Positions 13,471 through 40,030 are shown, counted from the stretch's first letter. The stretch is DNA of 64,000 bases from a candidate division WOR-3 bacterium (GCA_965649295.1 CBFGKH010000006.1:32001-96000), one strand, 5' to 3'. Notes: a model not told the origin generated them from the sequence alone. Translations and numbers: made by a program.

Positions 13471-14259
13471 ATGACATTGCAGAAACTACTGCCGGCAGTT
13501 CTCATAGCGGCAACCGGAGCGGTGATCCTGCGCTGCTCCGATGCACCGCTGATAACCCGTCAGGCCAGCCGCGTCGTTTTGGCCGAGACGTTCTCGACCA
13601 CTGAGTGAGCGTACTGTGAGGCCGCGGAGCGGTCTTTCGACAGCCTCGGACAGAGCTACGGTGACTCGCTGGTCCACGTGACCTGGTACCAGTCGTTTCT
13701 CCCGCTGCCCATTACCACGCCCGAAGGCGAGGCACGGGCCCTGCGCTACAACGTTCAGAGTATCTGGCCGTCGACCTACTTTGATGGATTCTACAAAGCA
13801 CCAATGGTCTCGGTCGAGGACTCGTTCTATACCGTCTATCGTGACTACGTTGACTTTGCCCGATCCCAGCCGGCAATCCTCGAAATAGGATGCGATACAT
13901 TGACAACCCGGCTTGGTCCAACGAATCTGAGCATCGGCCTCCGGATCACCCCAACCGACTCGGCAGTTGACGGTATGCGGACTCTGCAGCTTGTCGCGGT
14001 AGTATATGAAGACAGTGCTCCTTATCCGTCGTTCAGCGGTGATACCGCCTATGCTCGCTATTGTGCTCGAACCGTCATCGGTGGCGCCTGGGGAGTTCCG
14101 GTCAGTTTCCGTTTTGGTCAGGAGTTCGACACCGTGCTGACCACGCCCCTGGGTAACTGGACAACAGCACGCCTGGGCGCGGCGGTATTTGTTCAGGACA
14201 CGTCGAACCTGCGGGTAATGCAGTCGCTGCTTATCCGCCGGTTCCCGACCGGTCCTTGA
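13471..14259 (+). CDS. Predicted selenoprotein: Omp28-like thioredoxin-fold exported protein (possible lipoprotein), 262 aa, Sec46 (UAYC)
   Basis: ATG 13471 is in frame with ORF 13678-14259. Signal peptide, then RVVLAETFSTTE-TGA(13606-8)-AYC. SECIS-like hairpin GAGGCCG-CGGAG-CGGTCTT at 13618-13636. Confidence 0.85.
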
Positions 14260-14291
14260 AGAGTAATGTTGCTGATGTTGAGGAGTAGGCA

Positions 14292-14834
14292 ATGAAGCGT
14301 CTGTTTTGGTTGTTGGCTGTTTTGCTTGTGACTATTGCGATGCTCGGCGCGGCCGAGGAGGAAAAGAAGTATCCGAAGGCTCCGGATTTCACACTGAAGG
14401 ACATCAATGGCAAGGAGGTCAGGCTGTCGGAGCTGCTGAAGAACGGGCCGGTCTATCTGGAGTGCTGGGACCTGCCTTGCGTCAACTGCATTGCCGAGCT
14501 TGATGCGCTGGTACCGATCTATGACTCGCTGAAAGAACGCGGACTACAGATCGTCGCCCTGTCGGTGGACAAGCCCGGCGACGCTGCCCGGGTCAAGGCT
14601 TTTGTCAAGAGCAAGAAGTGGCCCTACATCGTTCTGCTCGACCAGCAGTCCAAGGTGAAGAAGGCCTACAGCATCGTCATCAAGCCAACCGCCTATCTCA
14701 TCAATACCGCTGGCGAGATCGTCTATACCCACATCGGCTATAAGAAGGGCGATGAAAAGAAGATTCGCGATGAGTTTCTGCGCTGGTTGCCCGAAAAGCC
14801 GGCTGCCGATGGGCCGGCGACCAAGGAGGAGTAG
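14292..14834 (+). CDS. TlpA/redoxin-family periplasmic thiol-disulfide oxidoreductase
   Basis: Signal peptide, APDFTLKD, WDLPCVNC and PTAYLI. Confidence 0.9.
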   Translation: MKRLFWLLAVLLVTIAMLGAAEEEKKYPKAPDFTLKDINGKEVRLSELLKNGPVYLECWDLPCVNCIAELDALVPIYDSLKERGLQIVALSVDKPGDAARVKAFVKSKKWPYIVLLDQQSKVKKAYSIVIKPTAYLINTAGEIVYTHIGYKKGDEKKIRDEFLRWLPEKPAADGPATKEE

Positions 14835-16326
14835 GCTGGGAGTCGGTTTTCGGTTCTGTCTTGTTGCCGGCCTGTTGCTGGCTATCGTCGGAGCGACTGA
14901 GCTGACGATTCAGGGTGTCAACCGGGCCGAGTTCTGGGCCTATCAGGAGAACTGGGCCACCAGCATTGAGGACAAGCTCGACCTGAACATCGGCTATGGA
15001 GACCTTGGTGCCGAGCTTGGTCTCTTTCTTTTTGAACCTTCCCAGCCCTGGACCGGCCTCCGCAAGCCGCTGCGGCTGCTCGACTATACGATTGCCTACA
15101 GCCCAGAGCAGTTCGAGCTGCTCTATGGCAAGTTCTTTCAGACGTTCGGCAAAGGACTGGCCCTGCGTGCCTATGCCGATGACGATTTCCGCCACTATAA
15201 GAGCCTGCACGGCCTACGCGGCACTGCCCATTTACCGTTTTCGACCGACATTGTAGTATTGGGCGGCCGGCTGCGCGAAATATTCTTCCAAGAGAACACC
15301 TACAAACTGCTGAATGCGGCTGACACCGGGTTCCAAGTTGTCGGCGCCGACCTTGAATCGCGGCCTCAAGACTGGCTGGGTTTCGGCGGACGTTATGTTC
15401 GCATCAATCGCGACTCGACCAAGGACCCGACACCGAAGGCTTTTACTGAACTATTTGGCGGCAATCTCGCCACGACCCTTGGGCCGGTTGACCTCTACGG
15501 CGAATACTGCCGCCGGCTTGGCACAAGACCGGGCATTGGCGGCCGGGAGACCGGCTACGGACTCTATCTGATCGGCACTGCTGCCTTTTCTGGTTACTCG
15601 CTGCTCGGTGAGTATCTCGACTACTACAACCTTGCCTTCCCGACCGGCACCTATCACTTCAACGACCCACCCACCCCAATCAAGTCCGGCGTAGCGCTGA
15701 ACCGGGGCGAAGATGAGCGCGGGTTTAGCATCGGCGCAACCGCCACCCCTTGGAGCACGCTCTATCTCGAAGCTGACTACGGCCGGCTGTATCGCCACAA
15801 AAATGCCGACGCTGGCGCAGTCGAGTGGGAAGGCAAAGCGCGCTACTCAGTGGGAGCGGACTGGACGTTTGAGGCAAAGTTCAATCATATGGTTCAGGAG
15901 AATGTTGAGCTGCACGTGCTCGATCGGGTTACTGATAAACCGACGATTCATGTCAACTATCTTCTCGGCGAGCACAGTTTTGCCCTCGAGGCCGAGTACA
16001 ATTGGGTCTATGAGGAACGCGACGACACGCCCGGTCGGGTAGCCGACACGATGCGCTATCACGAAACAGCAGTTGCCTTGAGCTACGGGTTCGGGGAAGC
16101 GCTGCTTTTCACTGCCGGCTGGCAAGGGGTGGACATGAAGCTGGACCGTCGCTACGCTGGCCAGCAGTCCTGGCCGATGTTTGAGGTGGTCTGGAATATC
16201 AACGAGCAGAACGTCCTGCGCTGTCGGATTGGCGCCGAGCGCGGTGGCTACACCTGCTCTGGTGGCGTCTGTCGGTTTGAATCGCCGTTCACTGGCGCCA
16301 AACTGCAACTTATCAGCCGGTTCTAG
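14809..16326 (+). CDS. DUF6029-like outer-membrane beta-barrel with C-terminal CxGGVC (start uncertain)
   Basis: Signal peptide, amphipathic beta-strands, GKFFQTFGKGLALRAY, C-terminal GGYTCSGGVCRFESPFTG and terminal Phe. Confidence 0.75.
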   Translation: MGRRPRRSRLGVGFRFCLVAGLLLAIVGATELTIQGVNRAEFWAYQENWATSIEDKLDLNIGYGDLGAELGLFLFEPSQPWTGLRKPLRLLDYTIAYSPEQFELLYGKFFQTFGKGLALRAYADDDFRHYKSLHGLRGTAHLPFSTDIVVLGGRLREIFFQENTYKLLNAADTGFQVVGADLESRPQDWLGFGGRYVRINRDSTKDPTPKAFTELFGGNLATTLGPVDLYGEYCRRLGTRPGIGGRETGYGLYLIGTAAFSGYSLLGEYLDYYNLAFPTGTYHFNDPPTPIKSGVALNRGEDERGFSIGATATPWSTLYLEADYGRLYRHKNADAGAVEWEGKARYSVGADWTFEAKFNHMVQENVELHVLDRVTDKPTIHVNYLLGEHSFALEAEYNWVYEERDDTPGRVADTMRYHETAVALSYGFGEALLFTAGWQGVDMKLDRRYAGQQSWPMFEVVWNINEQNVLRCRIGAERGGYTCSGGVCRFESPFTGAKLQLISRF

Positions 16327-16345
16327 TCTTTGGACAGGTGACAGT

Positions 16346-16483
16346 ATGAGGCGAAGAATCACATTTGTCGTGCTAGCGGTAGTCGGGGTTGCTGCCATCA
16401 TCCTTGGCATCCGGTTCGGCGACCCCGAGACAATTCACCGCTTTGCGGCCCAGATATGACTATCCTGCATGGGGCTCGTGTAG
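16346..16483 (+). CDS. Predicted selenoprotein: 45-aa CD1871A-like membrane peptide, Sec38 (ULSCMGL)
   Basis: MRRRITFVVLAVVGVAAIILGIRFGDPETIHRFAAQI-TGA(16457-9)-LSCMGLV-TAG. Matches the family ending 'ICxxCIG(L/I)'; directly precedes a 4Fe-4S membrane protein; hairpin GGGCT-CGTGT-AGCCC. Confidence 0.85.
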
Positions 16484-16503
16484 CCCACGAATGGCGGTAA
16501 CCA

Positions 16504-17763
16504 ATGGCTAAGCGTCGAATCGCTCCACACCGCATCGTCCAGGTCCTCTTCACCGTCGCCATCAACAGCTACATCCTGGCCTATGTCCAGCAGAAGGTGC
16601 TGTATCAAGGCGTGCTCAAGTCAATCCCCCAGCCGGTTCTCAACTGCTACGGCGGCCCGCTCTCGGTCTTTGCCTGTCCGATTGGCTCTACTCAGCAGAT
16701 GATTGGCCAGCACATTGTTCCCTGGCTGCCGCTGGGGATTTTTGTGGTGGTCGGTGCGTTTGTCGGTCGGGCTGCGTGCGGCTGGCTCTGCCCGCTCGGC
16801 CTGTACCAAGACCTGCTCTACAAGCTCCGGGTTGGGCCCCGGGCCAAGGCCAGACGCTGGCTCACGTTTGGCGTGATTGCCACAATCGCTGCTGCTATCA
16901 GCGCGGCGCTGGTCATTTTTGTCCGTCTCCCGGCTCTCAAAGTATTTGGCTATGGCTGGCTGCCCTTCACTCTGGCTGTGCTCCTCGTCGCCATTCGGGG
17001 CAAACTTGCCCTGCCCGCCCGGGTCTGGCTTGGAGGTTGGCTTGCCGCAATCGGACTTGGCCTGCTTGTCTGGTTCAGGTTCGAACCAGGGTTTGGCGTT
17101 GTGACTGCTGCAATCGGCATGGTGGTGCTCGGGCTGGCCGGCCGCTGGTTTGCCGCAGTGGTGGCGGCTGTTGCTGCGTTTGTGCTGACGTCAGTGGGGC
17201 CGGCGTTCGCGATCGGCCCGCTTTCAGGAGTGGCACTCCGGCTGGTGCTAGTCGCGGTCGCGCTAGGTCTGCCGCTGCTGCTTGATGTACTTCTTCGAGT
17301 CTCGCTGCCGTCGAGCCTCCTCAAGTTTGCGTTCCTAGTCCTGATTGCGGGCGTGGTGGCGTATGTCACTGCCGAACCCTGGTTCTGTAAGCTCTGTCCG
17401 CACGGCACGTTCGAGGCCGGCATCCCGCTTGTCCTCTGGGACCCAGTCAATGCCCTGCGCGGGCTGGTCGGCTGGCTCTACTGGGTGAAGATTGGGCTGC
17501 TGCTGGTGCTGGTCGTTGCCGCCATCGCTATCAAACGGCCCTTCTGTCGGATTATCTGCCCGATTGGCGCCATCTATTCGGTCTTCAACAAAGTAAGCCT
17601 GCTCCATTTGAAAAAGACCGAGGGCTGTACCAACTGCGGGCTCTGCCAGCGCATCTGCCCGATGGACATCGAGCCGCAGCGCGCTCCAAATCAGCTCGAG
17701 TGCGTCCGCTGTTTTGAGTGTGCTTGGCGCTGTCCCCGGTCGGGCCTGAAGATCCGGGTCTAG
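16504..17763 (+). CDS. Membrane polyferredoxin (NapH/RdxA-like 4Fe-4S binding protein)
   Basis: ACPIG, CGWLCP, FCKLCP, FCRIICP and two CxxCxxCxxxCP motifs; many TM helices. Confidence 0.88.
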   Translation: MAKRRIAPHRIVQVLFTVAINSYILAYVQQKVLYQGVLKSIPQPVLNCYGGPLSVFACPIGSTQQMIGQHIVPWLPLGIFVVVGAFVGRAACGWLCPLGLYQDLLYKLRVGPRAKARRWLTFGVIATIAAAISAALVIFVRLPALKVFGYGWLPFTLAVLLVAIRGKLALPARVWLGGWLAAIGLGLLVWFRFEPGFGVVTAAIGMVVLGLAGRWFAAVVAAVAAFVLTSVGPAFAIGPLSGVALRLVLVAVALGLPLLLDVLLRVSLPSSLLKFAFLVLIAGVVAYVTAEPWFCKLCPHGTFEAGIPLVLWDPVNALRGLVGWLYWVKIGLLLVLVVAAIAIKRPFCRIICPIGAIYSVFNKVSLLHLKKTEGCTNCGLCQRICPMDIEPQRAPNQLECVRCFECAWRCPRSGLKIRV

Positions 17764-17799
17764 CCCACCATTGCCGGCGGCCTCGCCCTGGCTACAATT

Positions 17800-18693
17800 G
17801 TGCCCTTGAGAAAACCAGCATGGCTTCGTGCCCGTCTTGCTGGCGGGCAGCAGTTCGAGCAAGTGAACGAGCGGCTGAACCGCTACGGTCTGCACACGGT
17901 CTGTTCGCAGGCGCGGTGTCCGAACCTGGCCGAGTGCTGGAATAGCGGCACCGCCACTTTTCTTATTCTCGGTGATACCTGCACCCGCCACTGCCGATTC
18001 TGCTCGGTCCGTACCGGCAACCCGCACGGCAACGTTGACAGAACCGAGCCCGGTCGGCTCGCAGCCGCCGTGGCCGAATTGGGCCTGGGCTATGTTGTGC
18101 TGACATCGGTTGACCGGGACGACCTGCCAGACCTCGGAGCCGAGCTTTTTGCAGAAGCGGTGAGGAGCATCAAGGGAACAAGAACAGTAGGCCGGTCCCT
18201 CGTTCCGCTAGTTGAAGTACTCACGCCCGACTTCGGTGGCAGAGCAGAGCTGCTGCGCCTGGTGGTTGAAGCCGGGCCGGATGTGTTTGGCCACAACCTC
18301 GAAACAGTGGCGCGACTGAGTCCACGCGTCCGCGACCCGCGCGCCTCCTACCAGCAATCCCTTGCCGTGCTGGCAACACTGAAAAGGCTCAACCCGGCAC
18401 TATTGACCAAAAGCAGCCTTCTCGTCGGGCTGGGCGAGACTGACGAGGAAATACTCCAGGCACTGCGCGACCTCCGTTCGGTAGGCTGTGACATCGTCAC
18501 TATCGGCCAGTATCTGCAGCCGGCCCACCACTGCCTGCCGGTCGCGCGCTATCTGCCGCCTGCAGAGTTTACAGCGCTGGCCGAGGCGGCACGGGCACTC
18601 GGGTTCAGACAGGCCTTCTGCGGGCCGCTCGTCCGCAGTTCCTATCACGCTGCCGAAATTGCGAGCTTGGCAGCGCCGACCAGCACCAGTTGA
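17800..18693 (+). CDS. lipA: Lipoyl synthase
   Basis: CSQARCPNLAEC, radical-SAM CTRHCRFC and VRSSYHA. The start may be TTG 17806. Confidence 0.95.
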   Translation: MPLRKPAWLRARLAGGQQFEQVNERLNRYGLHTVCSQARCPNLAECWNSGTATFLILGDTCTRHCRFCSVRTGNPHGNVDRTEPGRLAAAVAELGLGYVVLTSVDRDDLPDLGAELFAEAVRSIKGTRTVGRSLVPLVEVLTPDFGGRAELLRLVVEAGPDVFGHNLETVARLSPRVRDPRASYQQSLAVLATLKRLNPALLTKSSLLVGLGETDEEILQALRDLRSVGCDIVTIGQYLQPAHHCLPVARYLPPAEFTALAEAARALGFRQAFCGPLVRSSYHAAEIASLAAPTSTS

Positions 18694-20090
18694 TGGAGAG
18701 CAGCACCGCCGACAAAACACCGCCTGACCAAAGCCTGACCCCGGCCGCAGTTCGACGCGGACTGACCGTCTCGATTATCGAAGGCTCGTTTGCCACCCTC
18801 TACGCCACGCTCGCCGGCGGAATGTTTCTCAATGGACTGGCGCTGCTGCTCGGCGCCAACTCGTTCGGCATCGCCCTGCTTTCAGCAATACCGGCGCTGG
18901 TGACCGGCTTCGGATTCTTGGCTGGCTACCTCGTCCGTCAAGTCGGCGAGCGCAAGCGACTGGTCATCTGGACCGCCGGGTTTGGCCGGGCAGTCTTTGT
19001 CGTGCTGGTACCACTGCTCCTGCTGCGAGCAAAGGTACCGCTGGCACTCCTCTTTGCGACACTGGCCATATCAAGCATCCTGATGACGGTTGCCGGCACG
19101 ACCTGGCAGTCATGGATATCCGACCTGGTGCCGGATGAACGTCGGGGCCGGTTCTTTGGCCTACGCAACGCCATTCACGGGTTTCTTGGCGTGGCTACCG
19201 CCTATCTTGCCGGCCGCGGCATGGATGCCCTGAAGCTGCGCGGACTGGAGGCCACCGGCTATGGCCTGGCCTTCGGCCTGGCAGTGCTGTTTGGCCTTAT
19301 CTCAACACTGCTGCTGCGTCAGCCCGAACCGCGGATGGCCCCAAAACCAGCAGTGGGTCTGCGCGAGCTGCTCTTCGGCCCGCTATCTGAACCGCAGTTT
19401 CGGAAGTTTACCATCTTCCTCGCTGCCTGGTTCCTCACCGGCACCCTGGCATCGCCCTTCTACATCGTCCACCTGATGAAGAATCTGCATTTCTCGTTCA
19501 CCGCCATTGGTGTCTATTCGCTGGTGAGCGGCGGCAGTGGCGTGCTCTTTCAGCTCCTCTGGGGCCGGGCCATTGACCGGTTCGGCTCGCGACCGGTGAC
19601 CGTTCTCAAATTCTCGCTTGTCGGCATCATGCCCTTGCTCTGGGTCTTTGCCACGCCCTCGTTCCGGCTGCCAATCTGGATTGACGCGCTGATGAATGGC
19701 CTAGTCTGGTCTGGCGGCAGCCTCGGACTGTGGAACCTCCTGCTCGACCTCGCCGACAACCCCGCCCGCAAAGAGAGCTACTTCGCCATCTACTCGGTTG
19801 TGACCGGGCTTGGCGCATTCCTTGCCTCGCTCTTTGCCGGAGCCATTGCCCAAGCACTCTCCCAGTTCCACCTTACCATTCTCGGACGGACATTCGTCAA
19901 CTATCATGTAATGTTTCTCGCCGCCGGACTCAACCGGTTTCTGGTGCTGCCGCTGCTGCTCCGTGTCCAGGAACGCGACTCGAAACCGGTACGTCACGCG
20001 GTCCGGGCAATCGTCACCACTGCCCTGTGGCGGCTGAACGCCGGCAAGGATATTTTGCTCGATACCCTCGGCATCCGGCGCCAGGACTAG
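18690..20090 (+). CDS. MFS transporter
   Basis: About 12 TM segments; WQSWISDLVP..RRGRFFG and WGRAIDRFG. Confidence 0.88.
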   Translation: MMESSTADKTPPDQSLTPAAVRRGLTVSIIEGSFATLYATLAGGMFLNGLALLLGANSFGIALLSAIPALVTGFGFLAGYLVRQVGERKRLVIWTAGFGRAVFVVLVPLLLLRAKVPLALLFATLAISSILMTVAGTTWQSWISDLVPDERRGRFFGLRNAIHGFLGVATAYLAGRGMDALKLRGLEATGYGLAFGLAVLFGLISTLLLRQPEPRMAPKPAVGLRELLFGPLSEPQFRKFTIFLAAWFLTGTLASPFYIVHLMKNLHFSFTAIGVYSLVSGGSGVLFQLLWGRAIDRFGSRPVTVLKFSLVGIMPLLWVFATPSFRLPIWIDALMNGLVWSGGSLGLWNLLLDLADNPARKESYFAIYSVVTGLGAFLASLFAGAIAQALSQFHLTILGRTFVNYHVMFLAAGLNRFLVLPLLLRVQERDSKPVRHAVRAIVTTALWRLNAGKDILLDTLGIRRQD

Positions 20091-20178
20091 TCCTGCCTTT
20101 GACAGCTATCGCCGGGCGGCGATAATGTTCTCAATCCGCGGGCGTTTCCCAAAACCTCCGCAACAAAAGGAGCGTTCT

Positions 20179-21225
20179 ATGAAGAAGCTGTCCGTAGTAG
20201 CAATGCTCCTCGCAGCAGCGACGCTCGGCCTGGCGTTTGACCGCGTCGTCGTCATCGAGGAAGCATACCAAGAGGACTGAGGCACTTGCGTCGCTGCCAG
20301 TTCGGCAGTTGACCAGATCTGTTTCAACAATCCTGAGCGCGTCGCCGCCGTGCAGTGGCATGTCGACGCTGGTTACCCACAGTATTGCGCCGAGGCGCGC
20401 GCCAAGTGGTACCAGTATCCGCCGCCCTACAACGGCAGCTACGCCACACCCTGGGCCTGGATTGACGGCAAGAGCCGCGGTTACACCTACACCCAGTGGG
20501 CAAGCTACGTTACCTCACGGCTGGCAGTGCCCACCGACATCAGACTTGACCTGTCCGGCGAGTACAACCCAGCCACCCGAACCGGTACCCTTGTCGCGGT
20601 GATGTTCAACAGCGGAATGATGCCGCTCAACGCGGCCCTGCAAGTGGCAATCACCGAGGACAGTATCAACTATACCGGTCCCAACGGCGACCCTTGGCAT
20701 AACCACGTCTGCCGCGACTACGTGCCCGACCAGAACGGTTCACCGGTCTTGATTCCGTCGGGCGGCTATGACACGGTCACCGTCAGCTACACATTGAGCG
20801 CGGGCTGGCGCGAGCGGTTTGTCAAAATCGTCGCCTATGTCCAGAGCACCACTACCCAGCCCGACTCGTCCCGTCCGGTCTATCAGGGAGCCAGCGCGCC
20901 AGTGCTCTCCTTTGTCGGCGTTGCCGAACCGCGCATCCCAGACTCTTTCTACGACAACCTGACCGTGACTGCGGGGCCAAACCCGTGCCCGACCAGTGCC
21001 GAGTTTTGCTTCACCGGCCGGCCAGGCCAGAGCTACCGCCTGACCATCTTCGCTCCCGACGGCAGCCGGGTGCGCGAGTTCACCGGCACAATCACCACCG
21101 GGCAGAACAAGCTCAACTGGGACAGAACCGATACCCACGGTCGCAAGGTCAGCCGCGGCATCTATGGCTACCGGCTGGCTGCAACCGGCTGCGCCGCCAC
21201 TGGCAAACTAGTCATTACCGACTAG
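20179..21225 (+). CDS. Predicted selenoprotein: secreted Omp28-like protein with FlgD/T9SS-like tail, 348 aa, Sec34 (UGTC)
   Basis: SD AAGGAG and ATG 20179; signal peptide, then RVVVIEEAYQED-TGA(20278-80)-GTC in frame with ORF 20350-21225. TPWAWIDG cis-Pro motif and HNHVCR; hairpin GCTGCC-AGTTC-GGCAGT. Confidence 0.88.
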
Positions 21226-21255
21226 TCTCGACCCTCACTTCTTGCGGGGCAGGCT
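20903..21255 (+). repeat. Copy 1 of a 353-bp near-identical repeat (C-terminal domain plus start of terminator)
   Basis: Aligns ungapped to 22117-22469 with 11 mismatches by my manual count. Confidence 0.9.
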
Positions 21256-21392
21256 GATGCCTGCCCCGCTGCCATTGGTCAGGATAAGGATTAGCCAGTG
21301 TTGATTGACTGAGTGCCGGCATAGCCTAGAATAGAACCTGCTACGTTAAGGTGCTGTCCCGCACCAACGGACAAACTGTCAGGAGGCTTGGC

Positions 21393-22439
21393 ATGAAAAG
21401 ACCGTCCGCAATCATCGCGCTGCTCGCTGTCGCGACGCTGGCCGCCGCGTTTGACCGCGTCGTCGTCATCGAGGAAGCATACTGGGAAGGATGACCTACC
21501 TGTCCGGCTTCCAGCCGTGCGCTGGACCAGATAGCAATAGACTATGCCGGCTACGTCGCTGCGATCGAGTGGCACGGCGTATCCGGATATCCGTTATACT
21601 CGCCTGAGGCGCGGAATAAGTGGCGTCAGTACCCACCAACCGCACCACCCAACTCCTACTACACACCTTGGGCCTGGATTGATGGCGTGAGCCGCGGCTC
21701 TGCCTACAATAGTTGGAGCGGTTATGTGAGCCAACGCATCCTCGTCCCGAGCGACATCCGCATGACCACCACCGGCACCTACAACCCCAGTACCCGCCAA
21801 GGCACTATCACCGTCGTCCTGTTCAACAGCGGAATGATGCCGCTCGACGCGGTGCTGCATCTGGCGATTACCGAAGACAGCCTGTACTACGCCGCCCCGA
21901 ACGGCGACCAGTGGCACAATCACGTCCTGCGCGACTACGTGCCGACTGAGACCGGCACCCCGGTTTCGGTTCCGTCCGGCGGCTACGATACGGTAACACT
22001 CAGTTACACAATCGGTGCCGGCTGGGTAGAACGGATGTGTGCGCTCGTCACCTATGTCCAGGGTCCACTACAGCCCGACTCGTCGCGGCCAGTATATCAA
22101 GGTGGCGTGGCACCGCTGCTCTCCTTTGTCGGTGTTGCCGAGCCGCGCATCCCAGACTCTTTCTACGACAACCTGACCGTGACTGCAGGGCCGAACCCGT
22201 GCCCGACCAGTGCCGAGTTCTGCTTCACCGGCCGGCCAGGCCAGAGCTACCGCCTGACCATCTTCGCTCCCGACGGCAGCCGGGTGCGCGAGTTCACCGG
22301 CACAATCACCACCGGGCAGAACAAGCTCAACTGGGACAGAACCGATGCCCACGGTCGCAAGGTCAGCCGCGGCATCTACGGCTACCGGCTGGCTGGAACC
22401 GGCTGCGCCGCCACTGGCAAACTGGTCATTACCGACTAG
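21393..22439 (+). CDS. Predicted selenoprotein: paralogous secreted Omp28-like protein, 348 aa, Sec34 (UPTC)
   Basis: SD AGGAGG and ATG 21393; RVVVIEEAYWEG-TGA(21492-4)-PTC in frame with ORF 21687-22439; hairpin TCCAGC-CGTGC-GCTGGA. Confidence 0.88.
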
Positions 22440-22469
22440 TCTCGACCCTTGCTTCTTGCGGGGCAGGCT
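22117..22469 (+). repeat. Copy 2 of the 353-bp repeat
   Basis: See 20903-21255; offset is 1214 bp. Confidence 0.9.
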
Positions 22470-22559
22470 CCGTCCTGCCCCGCTTACTGTCCATTGACAG
22501 CTACCGGCCGACTGCTATATTCAGCCGCAGAACCGAACCCAACCAAGGAGACAAGAACA

Positions 22560-23324
22560 ATGAGACGTTTTCTGAGCATAGTTGCTCTGTCAGCGCTAGT
22601 CCTGTTCGGCTGCGGCAAGACAACCGTCGGCAAGGGCCGGATTGTTGACGTGCCGCCAATTCCTGACGGCGAGCTGAACCGCTACCAGATGTTCCTCAAC
22701 GGTGAGCCGAACGGCCAGTTCGAAATGATTGCCCGGCACGATATATTCAAGGAACGACCGGCCTGGCGTCTGGACATCGTGGCTCGCACCGCTGCTGCCG
22801 GCCTACAGACGACTGACTCCTCAGTAGTCTATGTCACCCGCGACAGTCTGGTGCCACTTTCGAGCTTCCGGTTCGTGCGAACCGGCAATGCCCTGATTGC
22901 GACCGCTGCTAACTACGTGGCCGAAGGCGTGGCAGTTACCACTTGGGCGGCCGGCGAGGAGAAACAAAGAATGCTGCCTCGCACCGGCTGGAGCTACGAC
23001 ACCGACCAGCTCACATTCCTGTGCCGAGCTTTGCGTATCTCGGCTGACAGGCCGGTGAGCATTCAGGTCGTAAGTCCAATGGGTCCACCTTCGGGCGGCA
23101 TCGTCTTCGAAGGAAGAATTGGTGCTCTCGCTGACCAGACTATTACCGTTCCCGCCGGGACGTTCGACTGCAACCGGGTAGTGATGAATATCGGCCCGCA
23201 CGTAGTTCAGGTCTGGTACGAAAAGACCGGTGCGCGGCGAATGATCCGCTACGAACAGCCCGGTACCGGCATAACAATTGAGCTAGTCTCGACCGAACGT
23301 TATGTCGAAGAAAGCAATTCCTGA
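22560..23324 (+). CDS. Lipoprotein, DUF3108-like
   Basis: Lipobox LFGC after ATG 22560; ITVPAGTFDC motif. Confidence 0.7.
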   Translation: MRRFLSIVALSALVLFGCGKTTVGKGRIVDVPPIPDGELNRYQMFLNGEPNGQFEMIARHDIFKERPAWRLDIVARTAAAGLQTTDSSVVYVTRDSLVPLSSFRFVRTGNALIATAANYVAEGVAVTTWAAGEEKQRMLPRTGWSYDTDQLTFLCRALRISADRPVSIQVVSPMGPPSGGIVFEGRIGALADQTITVPAGTFDCNRVVMNIGPHVVQVWYEKTGARRMIRYEQPGTGITIELVSTERYVEESNS

Positions 23325-23676
23325 CCAGACATAACCTTCCGATTACTGATGTCGCAGCGGCAGCCAACCTGCCCATCTGTCGCCTCGACACAATCGCCAT
23401 CTAGACGCATACCGACATAAGCCTAGCAAATACGTAACTTGTAATCCGACACGACTACTGCGCCACCATCACAATAGCACTGGCGACCGGCCTCGTTGGC
23501 GCGACAAGACAACGTCGCAGCTCCTATCACTCGTAACAACGTAAGTTAGATAGCAAGACCCGCGACAACCCCAGCCGCGACACCTTGCGCACACCAATCA
23601 TGACTTTCACCGCCATAATTCATATCCTAATTGAAATACAAACACTTAGCTCCCAATTTGCCAGCAACAATCGGCT

Positions 23677-29678: not shown

Positions 29679-30044
29679 GGCCCTGCCCGCGACATCGGCC
29701 CAAAGGGCTCGGGTAGCCGATTCCGAATCACCTAAGAAAACCCAGCCGGCAAGTCCACCGCAAGCTCAACCACAAAGAGCCTAAGTCATCTTACCAAAGA
29801 CCCATCACCAAACTCTGCGCTAGACCCAGCCCGAGACCGACCGTAGAAGAGCCGCTGAAACTGAACCGGAAAGAGCCTGTCAGGCCGACCCAAGAGCCAC
29901 ATCGTCAGCAGTTCTGGGGACGACTCCCGGGACAGTCCCGGGGATGGGGTGCGAAAAGTGTCCTTATCGCGTAAATATCTTCAACATCAGACGATACACA
30001 GAAATCCACCACTGGCGGCTGTGTACTTTGAAGTACACAAACTG

Positions 30045-30073
30045 CCGGCGGCGGGACAACTGCCCGCCGCCGG
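30045..30073. terminator. Hairpin between convergent genes
   Basis: CCGGCGGCGGG-ACAACTG-CCCGCCGCCGG. Confidence 0.6.
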
Positions 30074-30092
30074 AATTGCCGAACGGTCGAAT

Positions 30093-33000: not shown

Positions 33001-33769
33001 AGTTGCTGCGGCCGCGCTTGCCCCGGTGCTCACCGGTTGAATGGAACCGATACCACATCGAGGCTTCGACGGTACCGTCCTGGTGATAATACGAGACGAG
33101 CAGGCTATTGCCATGGACGTGCATCACCGGCGTCTCCATCGGCAGCGAAATCCAGCCCTCGAGTTCTGGCAGAATGAGCGTTCCCTCGCCCCAAGTAAGA
33201 GTGCCAGGATTGTCCCAGGCTCCAGAGCTGAACGCAGTCGCAGTCGTGTCCTTCAGCCAGTGACTGGCAAACATGATTGTGTCACCACCCTGCGCGTCGC
33301 CGTCGCTATAGAACCCAAGCGCGGTAATCCAGCCATTGAACATCAGTTCGGTCGAAAGATAGAGATACTGGCAGCGAAAGTAGGGGACGTCAGCGCCCCA
33401 AATGTGGTTATCAATACCCGGACCGTTACCGACTATCCGCGTGGACTCGACACTGAACGTCGGAACTGGTTTGACCTTAGGACTGGCTCTGCCCGCAAGC
33501 ACGACCGCTTCCGGTAAGTCAACCCAGTTGTCGTTTTCGTCCTTACGGTGGAGCGGACCGGATACGAGCACTGAATAGGTGCCGTCGTGGTTGTCGAAGG
33601 TCTTGGAGCACTCGGTGCGCAAGCGCACAATTTCATCTGTGGGCTGCCAACGACCAAACAGGCCGCCTTCACTCCAAAGTGAACGTTGGCCGCCAAACGC
33701 CATCGCGCCAAACCCGACTGGCAGAACCCCCATTGCCAGCACAACTACGATTGTCACTGAGCGGTTCAT
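30093..33769 (-). pseudogene. Large secreted CARDB-repeat plus Kelch-like propeller plus T9SS-like tail protein (about 1223 aa), frameshifted by a 5-bp duplication
   Basis: ORFs 31877-33775 and 30093-31880 join if one CGGAT copy at 31899-31908 is removed, restoring VNPGNIRSPVTAYY, which resembles sister repeats VHNPGNATVS and VRNNGNTTVS. Confidence 0.78.
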
Positions 33770-34226
33770 AACCACTCCTCCTTAAATTCGCGCGCTACTG
33801 GCGATTAGCGCGCCTTTCCTGCCTCATCAAAAATGGTCTCCAATTCGCGCCACCGGCCTGATCCCAAGACCATGTGGCATCGTCTTGCCCGCACCGTAAC
33901 CACGGCTGCCTCTGCGGGCAATCAAGTGGCGAGTTGTGTTATTTAGGGGTCGGCCTGGCGCCGAGACGGTCTTTGCTCTGCGGAGCCACTAGCGGAAGCC
34001 GCGTAGTCGCCCCCTCACACATGCGCAAAGCCAGCACACGTATGCAACACCCCTCGTCTGCAGGCGGTTGTCCGCCTACTGACGTGATTGTAGTGCTGCG
34101 GCTTGTGTCTGTCAAGCCCCAGCGCTTAGCTGCAATGCGCAGACGAGTAACCTCGGGTTGACTCCCGGCCCCAGCCGGCCGCATACTGGTGATAGATTTG
34201 CCCCGGTTTTGTGTCTATGAAGACGA

Positions 34227-34862
34227 ATGGAAGTAGCAGTGGCCCGGCTTGCTGATGACGACGCTGGTGGCGACGTGCGACCGCCTGACAAGCAGTGCTG
34301 CCCGCCAGGCGAAGCGGCCACAACCAGCTTACCGGAAGAGGATAGCAGACTGGTGCTCCGGGCCCAGGCTGGAGAACTGACGGCCTTTGATGAACTGGTG
34401 CGGCGGCACGCGCGGCCACTCTACTGCTACCTCTGGCGGATGTGCCGCAACCAGGCCGAGGCGGAAGAAATGGCGCAGGAGTCTTTTGTCCGGGCCTGGG
34501 AAGGGCTGGCCCGATTCCGCCGCCAGGCAAGCTTTCGCACCTGGCTCTTTCGGCTGGCGACGAACCTCTGCCTGAATCGGCTGGCTCGAACCAAACGTTT
34601 TGCCGCGCTCGACGAAGAAGCACCCGGGCCAGCGACAAGCGAGCCAGAGCAGATTCATGCTCAGCACCGGCAGTCAGAAATGATTCAGGCCGCGCTGCTG
34701 GCGCTGCCTGCCGACCAGCGGGCAGCGCTGGTGCTCTACGCCTACGACGAGCTAAGTTATCAGGAGATTGCCCAAGTCATGGGTCGGTCCGCGGCCGCGG
34801 TCAATGGCCTGATCTATCGGGCGCGGGACGCGGTGCGGACTGCATTAGGAGCAGAAAGATGA
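34227..34862 (+). CDS. ECF sigma-70 factor
   Basis: AEEMAQESFVRAW, FRTWLFRLATN and LSYQEIAQVMG. Confidence 0.93.
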   Translation: MEVAVARLADDDAGGDVRPPDKQCCPPGEAATTSLPEEDSRLVLRAQAGELTAFDELVRRHARPLYCYLWRMCRNQAEAEEMAQESFVRAWEGLARFRRQASFRTWLFRLATNLCLNRLARTKRFAALDEEAPGPATSEPEQIHAQHRQSEMIQAALLALPADQRAALVLYAYDELSYQEIAQVMGRSAAAVNGLIYRARDAVRTALGAER

Positions 34863-35164
34863 ACGGACAGACCAGAACTCAGAGGCCAACAATGACCGCC
34901 GAAGATGCCGAGCTGGCAGCGCTGCGGGGAGAGGCCCAGCCGCCGGTACCAGCCGGTCTTGAGGCGCGCGTCATCCAGCGCGTACGGGCACGCGCCAGCG
35001 CAGCTAGACCATCACCGCTGCGAGGTTGGCAACTCGTGTTGCTGCGTGCTGCTGCAGTCGTGCTGGTCTTCTTCGGAATCTGGCTGGGAACGAGATTGGG
35101 CTATGCCATCTGTGGCGACCGGGTGCAGCAGTATGAGCAGCTCATTGCCGAGGAGGGGCTATGA
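34859..35164 (+). CDS. Putative single-TM anti-sigma factor
   Basis: ATG overlaps the sigma stop; VPAGLEARVIQRV followed by one TM helix. Confidence 0.65.
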   Translation: MNGQTRTQRPTMTAEDAELAALRGEAQPPVPAGLEARVIQRVRARASAARPSPLRGWQLVLLRAAAVVLVFFGIWLGTRLGYAICGDRVQQYEQLIAEEGL

Positions 35165-35640
35165 AACGGTTCCTGCTTCCGCTGCTACTCGGTTTATCGC
35201 TGGCAGTGAACGCTGGTGTGGTTGTGGTGATTGTCCGGGAACGGGTGCGCATCCGGCGGTTTGAAAACCAGTTGGCGGCCAAGCTGCGTGACGGCCGAGC
35301 TGGAGTTAGGCAGTTCTTTCGTCTTATTGATGATTGGTCCAAAGTGCGCAGGCCTATCTTCGCCGCGATTGATACTGCTTATCAGGAACTCGGCCGGCTC
35401 GGACTTCAGCCGGACCCGGACTCGGCAGCGGTCGAGAAGGTGCTATCCCGGCTGGGCGAGCAGTTTCGGCTAAAGAAGCTGGCCGAGTTGCGGCTCAGCC
35501 GTGAGTTTTGGGCTCTGTACCGGCCCGAGGCCAAAGCACAACAGCAGGCCCGAATCAGGGCGATGCGGCAACTGGGCAGGAGGGGTGAAGGCAGGCATGT
35601 GGCGACAGACACTGCGACGAATGCGGGAGGTGAGAAATGA
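35161..35640 (+). CDS. Periplasmic heavy-metal sensor / Spy-CpxP-like helical protein
   Basis: SLAVNAG anchor, helical body and PDPDSAAVE motif. Confidence 0.6.
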   Translation: MKRFLLPLLLGLSLAVNAGVVVVIVRERVRIRRFENQLAAKLRDGRAGVRQFFRLIDDWSKVRRPIFAAIDTAYQELGRLGLQPDPDSAAVEKVLSRLGEQFRLKKLAELRLSREFWALYRPEAKAQQQARIRAMRQLGRRGEGRHVATDTATNAGGEK

Positions 35641-36059
35641 AGTCGCGATGGTTGATGGGACTGCTGGTCGTGTCGCTATTGGCCAATAGTGTCGAACTCG
35701 TCGTGTTTGGTGTCGGGTTCGTGCGCCGCCGCGCTGAACAGCACCGACTCTTCAAGAGCTTGCAGGCCCGCGCTCCGCGTTGGCACAAACGACCGTTGCT
35801 CAGTGCGTACCACCCCGCCTGGGACTCGCTTGGCCGGCTGCTGGCCGCGGCCGACAGTGAACTCTGGGCGCTGAACGAGCAGCAATCCCTTGACTCGGCA
35901 CGACTGGCAGCAGCAGTCGAACAGGTAGTGAGCCTGGAACTAGCAATGACCCGGCAAATCTTTGCCAGCGTCCAGGCACTGCACCGACCCGAGTATGACA
36001 GCATTCGTCCGGCCAAGCTGCGACAGTGGCAAGAGTTTACCGGCCTTGACCGGCACTAG
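35637..36059 (+). CDS. Second Spy/CpxP-like helical protein
   Basis: SLLANS anchor and LDSARL motif; translationally coupled to the previous gene. Confidence 0.55.
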   Translation: MKSRWLMGLLVVSLLANSVELVVFGVGFVRRRAEQHRLFKSLQARAPRWHKRPLLSAYHPAWDSLGRLLAAADSELWALNEQQSLDSARLAAAVEQVVSLELAMTRQIFASVQALHRPEYDSIRPAKLRQWQEFTGLDRH

Positions 36060-36178
36060 CTTCCAAACCAGTTGACAGTAGCGCCGACTAGAGAATAATG
36101 GCGGGATAGCAGAAATCCGAAGCAGGGCTTCGGACGCCAGACTGGACGACTGCTGGACAACCTGATGAGGAGAATCGC

Positions 36179-37516
36179 GTGAGCAAGACTATTGCTGCCT
36201 TACTGCTGCTTGCCCTGCTGGTGCCGACCTTTGCCCAGCCCGCCAGCCCAAATCCGGCGCTCGATGCGGCAGTCCAGGCAATCGAACTGATGAACCGCAA
36301 TCTCGGCCGCTGGTTCGTTATCGTCATTGTTGCCCTGGTGCTGTTTGCCCTCGTGGCTGCATGGCGCATCTGGGGCTACAGCCGGCGGCTGCTGGAGCTA
36401 GGCGAGCTGCGCAGTTCCACCGAACGCCGGCTGGGCGAGCTGACCGATGAACTGCTGCGCCTGCGGACCAAGCTCGTCTCAATCGGCGATCACGTTGACC
36501 GGACCGAGAAGGACATCGCCCTGCTGCGCCCTGAAGCTGCGGCCGACCTGGCAGCCCAGCTCAGTGGACTTGAAGAGGCAATTGCCGGCCTTACCGCACG
36601 GCTTGATACTGAGCTTGGTGAAGTGCGGCGCCAGTTGACCGAACTGGAAGCAAGAATTGCGGCGTTGACTGCGGCTGAGCCGCCCAAGCTCGAGGTTCCG
36701 ATTGAAGTCATGACGGCAACTGCGGCAGCTGAGGCCGCACAAGCCGCAGCAACCCAAGCAGCCCAGCAGGCAGAAGCGGCAGCAACCGAGAGTCGCGAGA
36801 CCGCTGCCCAAGCCCTTGCCGCTGTCCAGCGCCTCGAGGAGGAGTTTAGTAAGCAGCTTACCGAGCTTAGACTGCAACTAGCAGCAGTCCAGCCGCTGCC
36901 AACAGAGCCGGCAGTTGACGAAAGTCGGCAGCCGGCGGACACGGTTTCTGTGCCCCCAGAACCAGTGGCCACGGCGCCAGCCGAGACCGATGACGAAGCA
37001 GCTACTGGCGACGAGCATTTTGGGGCCGGTGAGTATGGCGAGGCCGTTGACTGTTACTCACGCTGGATTGAGAAGAACGAAGCTAACCCTGATCGGAATC
37101 GGCTGCTGGCAGTGCTGCACAACCGCGCGGTCGGTTATCTCCGCCTCGGTCGCTACCTCGATGCGCTGAATGACGCGGCCGCGATTGAACCATTGGTTGA
37201 TGTCTCGCCCAAGGCTGCCGGTGCAGCCCGGATGCTGACCGGCGTTGTCCACCTGTATCAGGGCCTGGTTGACGAGGCGCTTTCCGACTTTGAGCAGGCA
37301 CTGGTCGTGGACCCTTCTGCTCGCAAGACCCTGGCCAAAGACGAAGACATTGCCGCCTGGATCGAACAGAATCCAGCGGAAGCGAGAGTGCTTCAGCGCG
37401 GTCTGGACAGACTGCTGGGTCGCGAGAAACCCACACGAGCAGACCCGACAGCCGAGCGGCCAAAGGTCAAAAGTCAGAAGGCCAAAACCAGACCTGGAAA
37501 GCAACGACGGCGCTAG
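36179..37516 (+). CDS. Membrane-anchored coiled-coil plus TPR protein
   Basis: Signal peptide, TM helix, heptad region and C-terminal TPR-like helices (HNRAVGYLRLG; ALSDFEQAL). Confidence 0.75.
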   Translation: MSKTIAALLLLALLVPTFAQPASPNPALDAAVQAIELMNRNLGRWFVIVIVALVLFALVAAWRIWGYSRRLLELGELRSSTERRLGELTDELLRLRTKLVSIGDHVDRTEKDIALLRPEAAADLAAQLSGLEEAIAGLTARLDTELGEVRRQLTELEARIAALTAAEPPKLEVPIEVMTATAAAEAAQAAATQAAQQAEAAATESRETAAQALAAVQRLEEEFSKQLTELRLQLAAVQPLPTEPAVDESRQPADTVSVPPEPVATAPAETDDEAATGDEHFGAGEYGEAVDCYSRWIEKNEANPDRNRLLAVLHNRAVGYLRLGRYLDALNDAAAIEPLVDVSPKAAGAARMLTGVVHLYQGLVDEALSDFEQALVVDPSARKTLAKDEDIAAWIEQNPAEARVLQRGLDRLLGREKPTRADPTAERPKVKSQKAKTRPGKQRRR

Positions 37517-37534
37517 GCAGTTCTCCGCTGGCGA

Positions 37535-38560
37535 ATGGGCATCTCCCATCCCTTAGCCGTTGCGCTCGTCTCCGGCGGCCTCGACTCAACCCTGGCCGCA
37601 GCCATCGTCAAGCAACAGGGAATCACCGTCGTCGGCATCAACTTCCAGGGCGGCTATTGTCCTGGTCCGTGGGAGGGACTGAGTCGGGCTCAGGTTGCTG
37701 CTGGTCAGATTGGCATCGAACTTGTCACCCTGCCGATTGATGCTGACTTCATCGCCATGGTGAAGAAACCAAAGCACGGTCGGGGCAAGAATATGAACCC
37801 GTGCATTGACTGCCACATTATGATGATTCGCAAGGCTTGGGAATATGGCCGCACCCGCGGGGCAGAGTTCATCGTGACTGGCGAGGTGCTGGGACAGCGA
37901 CCGATGAGTCAGAACCGGCGGTCGCTTGACCTAGTTGCGGCCGAATCAGGAATCGGTGACAGACTGGTGCGACCACTTTCGGCCCAGCTTCTGGAACCGA
38001 CCTGGCCCGAACGCACCGGACTGCTCGACCGCAACCGACTCTATGACATTCAGGGCCGAACCAGAGACCGGCAGGCTGCACTGGCGCGAGAGTTTGGCAT
38101 CAACGACTATCCGCAGCCGGCCGGCGGCTGCCTGTTGACCGAGAAAGTCTTCTCCGCGCGACTTCGTGAGGCCTTTGCTCACGGCGAGGACTCAGTTTTC
38201 CATATCGAGCTACTGCGCATTGGCCGACATTTTCGTCTCGAATCGGGCAGCCGGGTCGTGCTGGGCCGCAACAAGCAGGAGAACGCCGAGCTTCTATCCC
38301 GGCTACCTGACTCGGCCGCGCTGATTGATGCCACTTCCTTGCCTGGCCCGCTGGCCCTGCTTGTGCCCGACTCCGGCGAGGCCGATCGCCTGCTCGCAGC
38401 GCGACTCTGTGTCGCCTACTCCGACAAGCGCGATGCCGGTGCCCAGCCGGTGAGAATAGCCAGCATGCGCCGATCCGTGACCGAGCTCGCCGCCGACCGC
38501 ATCGTCACCGTCACCGCCCTTGGACCTGATGATATTCGCCGGCTCGCCATCTCCGGCTGA
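37535..38560 (+). CDS. ThiI/MnmA-like PP-loop tRNA sulfurtransferase with DUF814-like C-terminus
   Basis: SGGLDS, NPCIDCH, TGEVLGQRPMSQ, PAGGCLLT and GRHFRL. Confidence 0.82.
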   Translation: MGISHPLAVALVSGGLDSTLAAAIVKQQGITVVGINFQGGYCPGPWEGLSRAQVAAGQIGIELVTLPIDADFIAMVKKPKHGRGKNMNPCIDCHIMMIRKAWEYGRTRGAEFIVTGEVLGQRPMSQNRRSLDLVAAESGIGDRLVRPLSAQLLEPTWPERTGLLDRNRLYDIQGRTRDRQAALAREFGINDYPQPAGGCLLTEKVFSARLREAFAHGEDSVFHIELLRIGRHFRLESGSRVVLGRNKQENAELLSRLPDSAALIDATSLPGPLALLVPDSGEADRLLAARLCVAYSDKRDAGAQPVRIASMRRSVTELAADRIVTVTALGPDDIRRLAISG

Positions 38561-38617
38561 ACTGGCTTCGGCCAGAAGCCATTTGACCCCTGCCCGGGCA
38601 GGGCTAGAATGAGGTTT

Positions 38618-40030
38618 ATGAGAAACTGTCTGCTACTCCTGCTCGTGCTGCTGCCGCTACCGGCAACTGCCCGACTCCAGGTCGGACAGACCGCACCAAA
38701 CTTCACCCTGCCCGACACGGCCTGGGTGAACCATCAACTTGTCGAGTTCCGCGGCCAGGTAGTACTGCTCAACTTCTGGGCCTCGACCTGAGGGACCTGC
38801 CGCGCGGAGTTGCCGCGCCTCTCCATCCTTCAGAACGACTACGGCCCCCACGGCTTCGCCGCCATCTCCATCAACCTCAACGAAGATATGATGAACGTTG
38901 TCCGGGTCTATGCCCGGCAGAACTCACACCTCTTTCTCCGCGACCCTGGCACAGTCTGGAGTGTTTACGCCCAGAACAACTATATCCCTTTGAACTACGT
39001 TCTTGATACTGCCGGCGTAATCCGCTATTGGGAGGAGGGCTTCGACGAAGCCGCCCTGGTGAGCGTGATTCGCCAATACCTGCCTGACCCGATTGACCAC
39101 GATGTTGGGGTGTTGCGTGTCATTGCACCCAGCGGCACGTTCGATTCTGGTGCAGTTGCTGTCCCGGCCTGCTCGGTTTACAACTACGGCGACCGGGTTG
39201 AGAACTATCCGGTACGGCTACAGATTGGCAGTCGTTATGACACGACCGTGCTAGTCACTAACCACCTGCCAGCAACCGGCCGCCGCGTCGAGTTTCCTGC
39301 CTGGACCGCACTCGAACGCGGCCAGCTCACCGTAGCCGCAACAGCCGAACTTGTCGGCGACGACATCGGCAGTAACAATACCGCGACCGGACTGACCATC
39401 GTGAATGTCCGCGACTTTGCCCTGACAGCGATTTTCGCACCACAGGACACGGTTGACTCAGGGACTACTGTCGTTCCCCTAGTCGAAGTACGCAACCTCG
39501 GAACGGTTGCCGATATGGGCCGGGTACGACTGACCATCGGCAGCGACTACGTTGACAGCGTCAATGTACCCCTGCAGCCAGGCCGCTGGGACACGGTTGC
39601 GCTACGAACTTGGACCGCCGGCGCAACTGGAGTCCTGCCCCTGCGCTGCACGCTAATCACCCGGCTTGCTGATATGAACCCCGCCAATAATCTGCTTGAA
39701 CGTACGGTCGTTGTGCTCGGCCTGGGAGTGGCCGAAGAATCCAAGACTATGCTAGAACCGTTCCGTCTAGAGCCAGCCACAAATCCGGCAGCAGGCCACG
39801 TGCTATTTGCCATCACACTACCCAACCCTCAGTATGTGGAAGCAACTCTCTTCGCGGCGAACGGAACACTAATCCGGCGGCTGTGGTCTGGTCCACTGCC
39901 AGCAGGCCAGCACAAACTTCGCTGGGACTGCCGGGACGAAGCCGGCAACAGAGTCGTCCCTGGCCGGTATTTCTGCTGCGCAGTAGTCGGCGACAGAACA
40001 AGGAATACTGGCGTTACAACCACCAGGTAA
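38618..40030 (+). CDS. Predicted selenoprotein: secreted TlpA/redoxin plus two CARDB domains plus FlgD/T9SS-like tail, 470 aa, Sec58 (UGTC)
   Basis: APNFTLPD...VVLLNFWAST-TGA(38789-91)-GTCRAELP joins ORFs 38609-38791 and 38810-40030 in frame and matches TlpA 'NFWAxWCxxCRxE.P'; hairpin GCGCGG-AGTTG-CCGCGC. Confidence 0.92.

Follow-up and report, generated by a model that had tools for sequence, protein, structure and literature searches.

Among the 119 prokaryotic selenoprotein families tabulated in the available text of a review (PMC13188914) are GOS_C (NF045500, UxxC), a "Redoxin family protein" (PF08534, UxxC), a UGC-containing TlpA family and Prx-like oxidoreductases, where U stands for selenocysteine (Sec). 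GOS_C has a thioredoxin-like fold and, in the available portion of Zhang and Gladyshev (2008; PMC2398784), is represented by 74 Sec and 312 Cys sequences; the same portion catalogues selenoproteins with "secreted" serine protease domains. Here we describe five genes in a 64,000-nucleotide (nt) stretch of DNA (GCA_965649295.1, CBFGKH010000006.1:32001-96000; hereafter the window, from whose first letter positions are counted), each of which contains an in-frame TGA, and we conclude that all five TGAs are very probably Sec codons. The source is an uncultured hot-spring bacterium, placed in candidate division WOR-3 by database names, and its genome is a draft metagenome-assembled genome (MAG) of 19 contigs (100% complete, 0.58% contamination, 60% G+C). 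Genes and proteins are referred to below by the positions of their TGA codons (13606, 16457, 20278, 21492 and 38789), the product of the 16457 gene also being called the small peptide; G000 denotes this genome, C1, C2 and so on its contigs, L-numbers loci and P-numbers proteins.

Insertion of Sec at these codons would require nothing beyond the ordinary bacterial mechanism, in which SelB with Sec-tRNA(Sec) would be recruited by a short stem-loop, the selenocysteine insertion sequence (SECIS), beginning 9-16 nt after the UGA, with a loop of 5 nt in which positions 2-3 hold G, usually GU. On the sequence evidence, selenium would actually be inserted in all five products, which are predicted to be extracytoplasmic and in which Sec would take the place of the nucleophilic, more N-terminal Cys of CxxC. 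As the attacking residue it would make thiol-disulfide (selenosulfide) exchange faster in the oxidizing setting of the envelope or cell surface, a role that we propose because it is established for thioredoxin-fold selenoproteins.

In-frame TGA codons and their conservation

Translation with TGA read as U showed that the frames are open on both sides of all five codons and that the motif is U-x-x-C at every site, so that TGA occupies the position of the first Cys of CxxC, as an earlier, sequence-only reading of this DNA had claimed (Table 1). The small peptide begins with MRRR followed by a hydrophobic helix and ends at a TAG eight codons past its TGA. For the tandem pair earlier starts are also open, an ATG at 20125 (giving a 20278 protein of 366 amino acids, aa) and a GTG at 21351 (giving a 21492 protein of 362 aa), and the two genes are 72% identical. 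A contig of a related strain from a hot-spring metagenome joins position 20232 to 21447, lacks the intervening 1214 bases and so carries one gene in place of the tandem pair. The sequence-only reading also held that standard gene callers split all five genes, which we could confirm for two, as the window's own database products are cut to 291 aa and 237 aa. These shortened products are two of the 120 best homologs of the 20278 protein, 118 of which cover 62-84% of the query and begin past the TGA; those 118 are WOR-3 proteins that go by the names "Omp28-related outer membrane protein" or "T9SS type A sorting domain-containing protein".

The genome encodes the Sec machinery that the sequence-only reading had proposed to look for, with selA (575.6 bits, on the same contig as the window), selB (345.3 bits), two copies of selD, each with one in-frame TGA, and a tRNA-Sec (72.9 bits; called SeC, anticodon TCA, by ARAGORN), all above curated cut-offs.

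The evidence that carries our conclusion comes from relatives, for which we searched 40 related genomes in five families of one order. For the 20278 protein, 32 of the 33 strong matches outside G000 hold exactly one TGA, the sole match lacking it spanning only residues 104-366, without the site. U occupies the column in 11 of 11 aligned orthologs, and Cys in none. A species-level genome collection added 11 loci of this family, all of them with TGA and hairpin, including one in a Candidatus Stahlbacteria MAG at 35% identity. Two full-length database homologs have Cys at the site (P0037 and P0041; SET-C-DGC and SEV-C-DGC). In the 38789 family, 13 of 15 full-length orthologs have one TGA and two have none; the alignment (n = 11) has U in nine and Cys in two (WQST-C-GHC; L027 and L034). 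Similarly, one TGA is present in 15 of 15 matches to the 13606 protein at E ≤4e-42, and its alignment (n = 19) has U in 16 and Cys in three. Among 29 small-peptide loci, TGA was found in 24 and Cys in four, the remaining locus, at a contig end, giving no match. The Cys-form loci in the 13606 and small-peptide comparisons are L064-L066, L091 and L094-L096.

Within the small peptide's own family of genomes the best match has the TGA in 41 of 43, and beyond the order TGA is absent from all matches save one weak one. A search of 272 genomes of the phylum with the NF040920 profile retrieved only Cys forms (33-41 bits), and a protein query was required to reach the Sec forms. Cys homologs at the Sec position thus occur in all four families, the residues on both flanks of the TGA column are conserved between genomes that are 35-65% identical, and the homolog comparison suggested by the sequence-only reading returned TGA or Cys at the aligned position and never Trp.

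Hairpins downstream of the TGA codons

RNAfold and a pattern scan both recovered the hairpins with 5-nt loops that had been described after all five TGAs. The distances given for the second loop base, G (+18, +19, +20, +23 and +18), are right if counted from the A of UGA, and four of the five loops do read GU. In the fdhF element of E. coli, SelB contacts a G and a U of the apical loop that lie some 20 nt past the UGA. The small-peptide hairpin straddles the end of its gene, the TAG stop (16481-16483) lying within the loop and 3' arm and the final three stem bases lying past the gene.

We called a hairpin strict if its loop has 5 nt with G as the second, if its stem has at least 5 base pairs, at least three of them G-C, and if the loop starts between +13 and +30. 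Such a hairpin accompanies 64 of 64 TGA-form genes (17, 12, 10 and 25 in the four families) as against one of 29 Cys-form genes (0 of 3, 1 of 2 and, for the small peptide, 0 of 24). Positions 2-3 of the loop are GU in 41 of the 64 picks, GG in 16 and GC in seven; eight of the small-peptide picks landed on an alternative, overlapping register, and the 12 TGA forms of the 20278/21492 family use two registers 3 nt apart. The consensus helix of the 13606 family (17 sequences) has eight pairs, five of them with compensatory changes, and pairing holds in 97.5% of cells, a value reached by none of 500 shuffles and compared with 29-58% in slid controls. For the small peptide (25 sequences) pairing holds in 96% of cells, again reached by none of 500 shuffles, and one pair (18-28) is GC in ten sequences, CG in ten and UA in five. 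An Rfam scan of the whole window gave no match at gathering thresholds, which is uninformative as Rfam may have no bacterial SECIS model.

Predicted folds and export of the five products

Both proteins of the tandem pair match Pfam Omp28 (PF11551) above its gathering score of 34.9 (20278, 48.2 bits; 21492, 40.6 bits), and their database homologs carry PF18962 and the name "T9SS type A sorting domain". The 13606 protein has no Pfam match. The 38789 protein exceeds the gathering scores of Redoxin (PF08534, 53.4 bits) and AhpC-TSA (PF00578, 51.2 bits); beta-rich domains occupy its middle, and its C-terminal FlgD-Ig-like sorting domain scores 30.6 bits against FlgD_ig, above the cut-off of 27. C-terminal Ig-like sorting domains are thus predicted for three of the five products.

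AlphaFold2 models of the 13606 and 20278 proteins, made from the ortholog alignments (pLDDT 87.7 and 84.9), both have a thioredoxin-like domain, with U at the N-terminal end of helix 1 after strand 1, followed by a beta-sandwich; in the 13606 model U46 precedes helix 47-66 and follows strand 36-43. Matches of the 13606 model in the Protein Data Bank (PDB) are 2axo, HBP35 (5y1a) and the Omp28 domain 2r2c (TM 0.67-0.77), HBP35 is the top PDB match of the 20278 model, and the fold matches also include a thioredoxin. We predict, then, that the products are three Omp28/HBP35-like proteins (one a lipoprotein and two apparent type IX cargo), one redoxin and one membrane peptide.

The sequence-only reading had placed all five products in the envelope or outside the cell, and the features that we found argue for this by indirect means. 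All five products start with a short charged segment, after which comes a hydrophobic stretch; in the 13606 (P0001) family an invariant, lipobox-like Cys22-Ser23 follows that stretch. The sorting domains and the fold match to HBP35, which we take to be a CxxC-containing cargo of type IX secretion, point the same way, as do type IX genes in the genome, namely SprA (445.8 bits, over its cut-off) and two full-length PorU-like genes (369 and 340 bits). From these sequence features, export of all five products appears probable and is best stated as a prediction.

Short TlpA-like genes in relatives align with residues 1-160 of the 38789 protein. Their frames are about 270 aa long and many contain one TGA (examples are G003:C12:3313-3771, G002:C2:18327-18800 and G008:C22:26403-26876, with none listed for G000), pointing to another subfamily of redoxins with Sec in this order. 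Elsewhere in the window, a ResA/TlpA-like match at 47731-48117 on the minus strand (G000 C6:79731-80117), with no in-frame stop and 33.2 bits to NF041054, is presumably a Cys-type redoxin.

Weighing other explanations

Could the TGAs be ordinary stops, each ending a short upstream frame ahead of a separate downstream gene or marking a decaying pseudogene? The N-terminally truncated products that gene callers yield, as for the 118 homologs mentioned above, would fit such an arrangement, and start codons do lie downstream of four of the TGAs. However, those products would be without signal peptide and CxxC active site, residue conservation runs straight through the TGA, full-length Cys forms exist, and a TGA column kept in dozens of genomes is unlike decay, so that we consider this explanation extremely improbable. 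Alternatively, UGA might be read as Trp, Gly or Cys, either by a change of the code or by leaky near-cognate decoding. Open frames alone cannot separate Sec from another residue, and under selenium scarcity some misreading of Sec codons is conceivable. A code change is excluded because, of the 1149 open frames in the genome that span 300 codons or more, 430 end in TGA, and TGA is also the ordinary terminator (at 14257) of the 13606 gene itself. Readthrough with another residue in general is very unlikely given that the in-frame TGAs align with Cys only, that the genome has the full set of selA, selB, selD and tRNA-Sec, and that the hairpin goes with TGA forms and is nearly absent from Cys forms. 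Finally, the draft state of the assembly might suggest assembly or sequencing errors, but the same codon stands in the same column in dozens of independently assembled genomes and therefore is no such error, an explanation whose probability we regard as negligible; contigs from hot-spring metagenomes (two studies, 90-99% identity) also show no difference at 13606-13608 among 40 of 766 rows, which is a weak check.

Several observations do weigh against reading the five genes as encoding exported selenoproteins. The strict hairpin is frequent by chance, following 177 of 7071 (2.5%) in-frame Cys codons of the genome used as controls, with 28 of 1187 among TGAs that have an open, coding-like upstream region. 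The folding energies of the five hairpins are ordinary, lying between the 9th and 39th percentiles of the Cys-codon controls, and the energy of a single hairpin accordingly failed as a discriminator. The consensus fold of the 20278/21492 family is weak because its hairpin occurs in two registers, and the 6-base-pair helix of the 38789 family is near-invariant, with one compensatory change in ten sequences and hence little covariation. All matches to curated selenoprotein models are far below cut-off, and where export is concerned two of the three sorting-domain matches (20278, 21.6 bits; 21492, 20.9 bits) fall under the FlgD_ig cut-off and both PorU-like genes fall under theirs of 420. The "shared SECIS architecture" of the sequence-only reading is borne out as far as the hairpins exist, but they are ordinary bacterial SECIS elements that, given their background frequency, do not discriminate by themselves. 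A single hairpin of this type would be nothing unusual, but its presence at all five sites is, and the link between hairpin and TGA form holds across relatives. For this reason the weight of our reading of the five TGAs as Sec codons rests on the comparative evidence.

A five-gene module around the small peptide

The two selenoprotein genes at 13606 and 16457 belong to a module with the order Omp28-like selenolipoprotein, ResA-like redoxin, DUF6029 protein, selenopeptide and NapH-like polyferredoxin (Table 1). The start of the DUF6029 gene is probably later than the 14752 given. The NapH-like gene is in a different frame from the peptide and is a separate gene, and all its NCBIfam NapH-type matches are below cut-off. 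Between it and the tandem selenoprotein genes, at 17800-20090, lie lipA (lipoyl synthase, 380.8 bits) and a gene for a major facilitator superfamily (MFS) transporter.

Table 1. Coordinates of the genes and putative SECIS elements discussed in the text, by position in the window.
Feature	Coordinates	Strand	Details
Omp28/HBP35-like lipoprotein gene (predicted)	13471..14259	+	262 aa; Sec = residue 46, TTE-U-AYC; TGA at 13606
UGA and putative SECIS	13606..13636	+	7-bp (base-pair) stem 13618-13624/13630-13636; loop CGGAG
ResA/TlpA-like redoxin gene, Cys form (C-VN-C)	14292..14834	+	Pfam AhpC-TSA 77.8, Redoxin 58.9 bits
DUF6029 protein gene	14752..16326	+	Pfam DUF6029 67.3 bits; Porin_4 19.7, below cut-off
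Small membrane-peptide gene (predicted)	16346..16483	+	45 aa; TGA at 16457; QI-U-LSC-MGLV
UGA and putative SECIS	16457..16486	+	stem 16472-16476/16482-16486; loop CGUGU
NapH/NosR-like membrane polyferredoxin gene	16504..17763	+	Pfam Fer4_5 50.1 bits; CxxxCP motifs, two 4Fe-4S motifs
Omp28/HBP35-like thioredoxin-fold gene (predicted)	20179..21225	+	TGA at 20278; ED-U-GTC; predicted C-terminal Ig-like sorting domain
UGA and putative SECIS	20278..20309	+	stem 20293-20298/20304-20309; loop AGUUC
Tandem paralog of the 20278 gene	21393..22439	+	TGA at 21492; EG-U-PTC
UGA and putative SECIS	21492..21526	+	stem 21510-21515/21521-21526; loop CGUGC
TlpA/ResA-like redoxin gene	38609..40030	+	473 aa; TGA at 38789; FWAST-U-GTC
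UGA and putative SECIS	38789..38818	+	stem 38802-38807/38813-38818; loop AGUUG

The arrangement recurs in relatives. The redoxin and DUF6029 genes flank the 13606 ortholog in 16 of 16 loci; of 24 small-peptide loci, 23 have DUF6029 ahead of the peptide gene, which in the relatives examined lies upstream of the NapH-like gene. In further loci of the phylum a full-length NapH-like gene adjoins the Cys-form peptide in 18 of 20, usually with an overlap of 1-4 nt, whereas the Sec form has a spacer (20 nt in the window) in place of the overlap, and this spacer holds the 3' arm of the hairpin. A complex prediction from alignments for a relative's Cys-form peptide and its NapH-like neighbor scored 0.05, which is no answer and speaks neither for nor against binding.

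What might such a module do? Electrons from the NapH-like iron-sulfur protein could pass via the peptide and a periplasmic redoxin to surface Omp28-like proteins, and together with its CD1871A-like selenopeptide the module may be a trans-envelope selenol/thiol redox relay. That the module is a route taking reducing power outward from a membrane iron-sulfur protein is, however, a tentative proposal that we think rather unlikely to be right as it stands. Alternative functions that our analysis would accommodate are surface peroxide defense, or the binding of heme or soft metals, the heme idea being prompted by HBP35, which is known as a hemin-binding protein. In any of these cases, a tiny selenopeptide tied to a NapH-like iron-sulfur membrane protein offers a concrete, testable system; the way in which Sec would be inserted is itself the usual one.

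Other candidate selenoprotein genes in the genome

Genome-wide scans for further Sec genes by codon and hexamer scores were noisy, biased and incomplete; of the five sites in the window every filter overlooked two or three, and what the scans return are leads and not a census. A second selenopeptide candidate, at C1:320354-320521 on the minus strand (L136), reads SSGI-U-IPC-MGLGK and then TAG, with a hairpin across the stop; its neighbors are Cys-type Omp28-like genes (C1:321164-323807) on one side and, on the other, a selD that contains Sec (C1:318451-319377). Three paralogs (L133-L135; C2:194854-196773, minus; C3:248660-253654, minus; C9:82030-83955, plus) each combine a signal peptide and a type IX sorting tail with an N-terminal "NGDFE" domain, in which a single TGA falls at residues 186-191 (G-U-G/T or C-U-M). 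This family has about 60 matches in 30 of 31 genomes of relatives, nearly all with one TGA, and its Sec domain is covered by no Pfam or NCBIfam family.

Signal-peptide proteins with an in-frame TGA, in CxxU or CU motifs, are also encoded at L128 (C3:126549-127298, minus; PYCGG-U-YNG), L129 (C8:60999-61934, plus; YRC-U-GDNC) and L131 (C4:55334-56758, plus; RGC-U-FNRD); their orthologs keep the TGA in 7, 7 and 3 matches, respectively, and more distant matches of L128 and L131 are without it. Two other leads proved false, L130 being LigT followed in frame by NfeD and L132 a gene that begins past the TGA. There are at least seven exported or membrane-anchored candidates beyond the window, none of which matches a curated NCBIfam selenoprotein model. 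Counting the five genes of the window and the two selD genes as well, the Sec candidates number at least 14, and 12 of these carry a signal or membrane-anchor sequence.

Selenium is apparently spent in this bacterium mainly on redox proteins of the envelope and surface and not on central metabolic enzymes. The broader picture, of a WOR-3 lineage whose selenoproteome is mostly extracytoplasmic, with the selenopeptide as an uncatalogued family and the module perhaps as a trans-envelope relay, is one that we hold with a little less than even confidence. Public records of the 20278 protein family almost all lack an N-terminal fifth that contains the predicted signal peptide and the active site, and predictions of localization and function are therefore skewed for a whole candidate phylum.

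Comparison with described selenoproteins

The best-studied bacterial selenoproteins are metabolic enzymes, and the sequence-only reading set its exported set against them. Exported selenoproteins have precedents, however; periplasmic formate dehydrogenase is one, and the selenoproteins with secreted serine protease domains in the available portion of Zhang and Gladyshev (PMC2398784) weaken that contrast further. The novelty is also lower than that reading implied, given that UxxC selenoproteins of Omp28-related (GOS_C) and redoxin/TlpA kinds stand in the portions of the catalogues cited at the outset. A literature search returned no paper on a selenoprotein with Omp28 or WOR-3, and none for WAxxUGC or CD1871A, while selenocysteine together with type IX secretion yielded a single, apparently unrelated entry; none of these terms is present in the preprint of Haft and Gwadz (10.1101/2022.07.06.499078).

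The three Omp28-like proteins of the window share with GOS_C (NF045500) a thioredoxin-like fold, the U-x-x-C motif, Omp28 kinship, Cys homologs and a SECIS after the UGA. They score only 47, 37.6 and 25.4 bits against that model, whose cut-off is 200, and are therefore separate subfamilies; unlike its members, two of these proteins carry an additional, putative sorting domain at the C-terminus, and the other is a predicted lipoprotein. The genome as a whole has no NF045500 member above cut-off, its best match (74.6 bits) being a Cys paralog. By fold, the closest proteins of determined structure are HBP35 (5y1a) and Omp28 (2r2c) of Porphyromonas gingivalis (Foldseek E 1.9e-12 and 2.3e-10, TM-scores up to 0.71), in both of which a beta-sandwich likewise comes after the thioredoxin-like domain; HBP35 has a C-terminal domain as well. 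They differ in that they are only 11-13% identical, have Cys and not Sec, and belong to another phylum.

The 38789 protein is akin to the ResA-like WAxxUGC family (NF041054), with which it shares the Redoxin/AhpC-TSA domain, the W-A-x-x-U-G-x-C motif (here W-A-S-T-U-G-T-C) and an N-terminal signal-like segment. Its score is 40 bits against a cut-off of 300, and beyond the ResA-like kind it adds about 300 residues of beta-rich domains and a sorting domain. A scan of the genome found no NF041054 member above cut-off, the 38789 protein scoring 34.2 bits there.

For the small peptide the nearest described family is CD1871A (NF040920), which like it has about 45 residues, a hydrophobic helix at the N-terminus and CxxC(M/I)G(L/I) at the C-terminus, and whose Cys forms occur phylum-wide beside a NapH-like gene. 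In contrast to these, the peptide has Sec as its first Cys, reaches 24 bits (E 2.7e-5, U being scored as C) against a cut-off of 32, has a SECIS that straddles its own stop, and is followed by the 20-nt spacer where the Cys forms overlap the downstream gene. The available text of the review names "UXX-star" and "KCU-star" proteins, holds no Sec form of a CD1871A-like peptide in its 119-family table and mentions none of NF040920, "CD1871A" or "Omp28" (PMC13188914). Against the available text of that review and the literature search above, the selenopeptide looks uncatalogued. The UXX-star and KCU-star proteins, as we presume their make-up to be beyond the names, resemble it in placing Sec a few codons before the stop and the hairpin past the coding region, and belong to other protein families. 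Apart from that of the peptide, the genes belong, with scores under threshold, to kinds already known, and their novelty is modest; it is higher for the peptide, which combines the build and the NapH-like neighbor of a CD1871A protein with a Sec codon and a SECIS that reaches across its stop.

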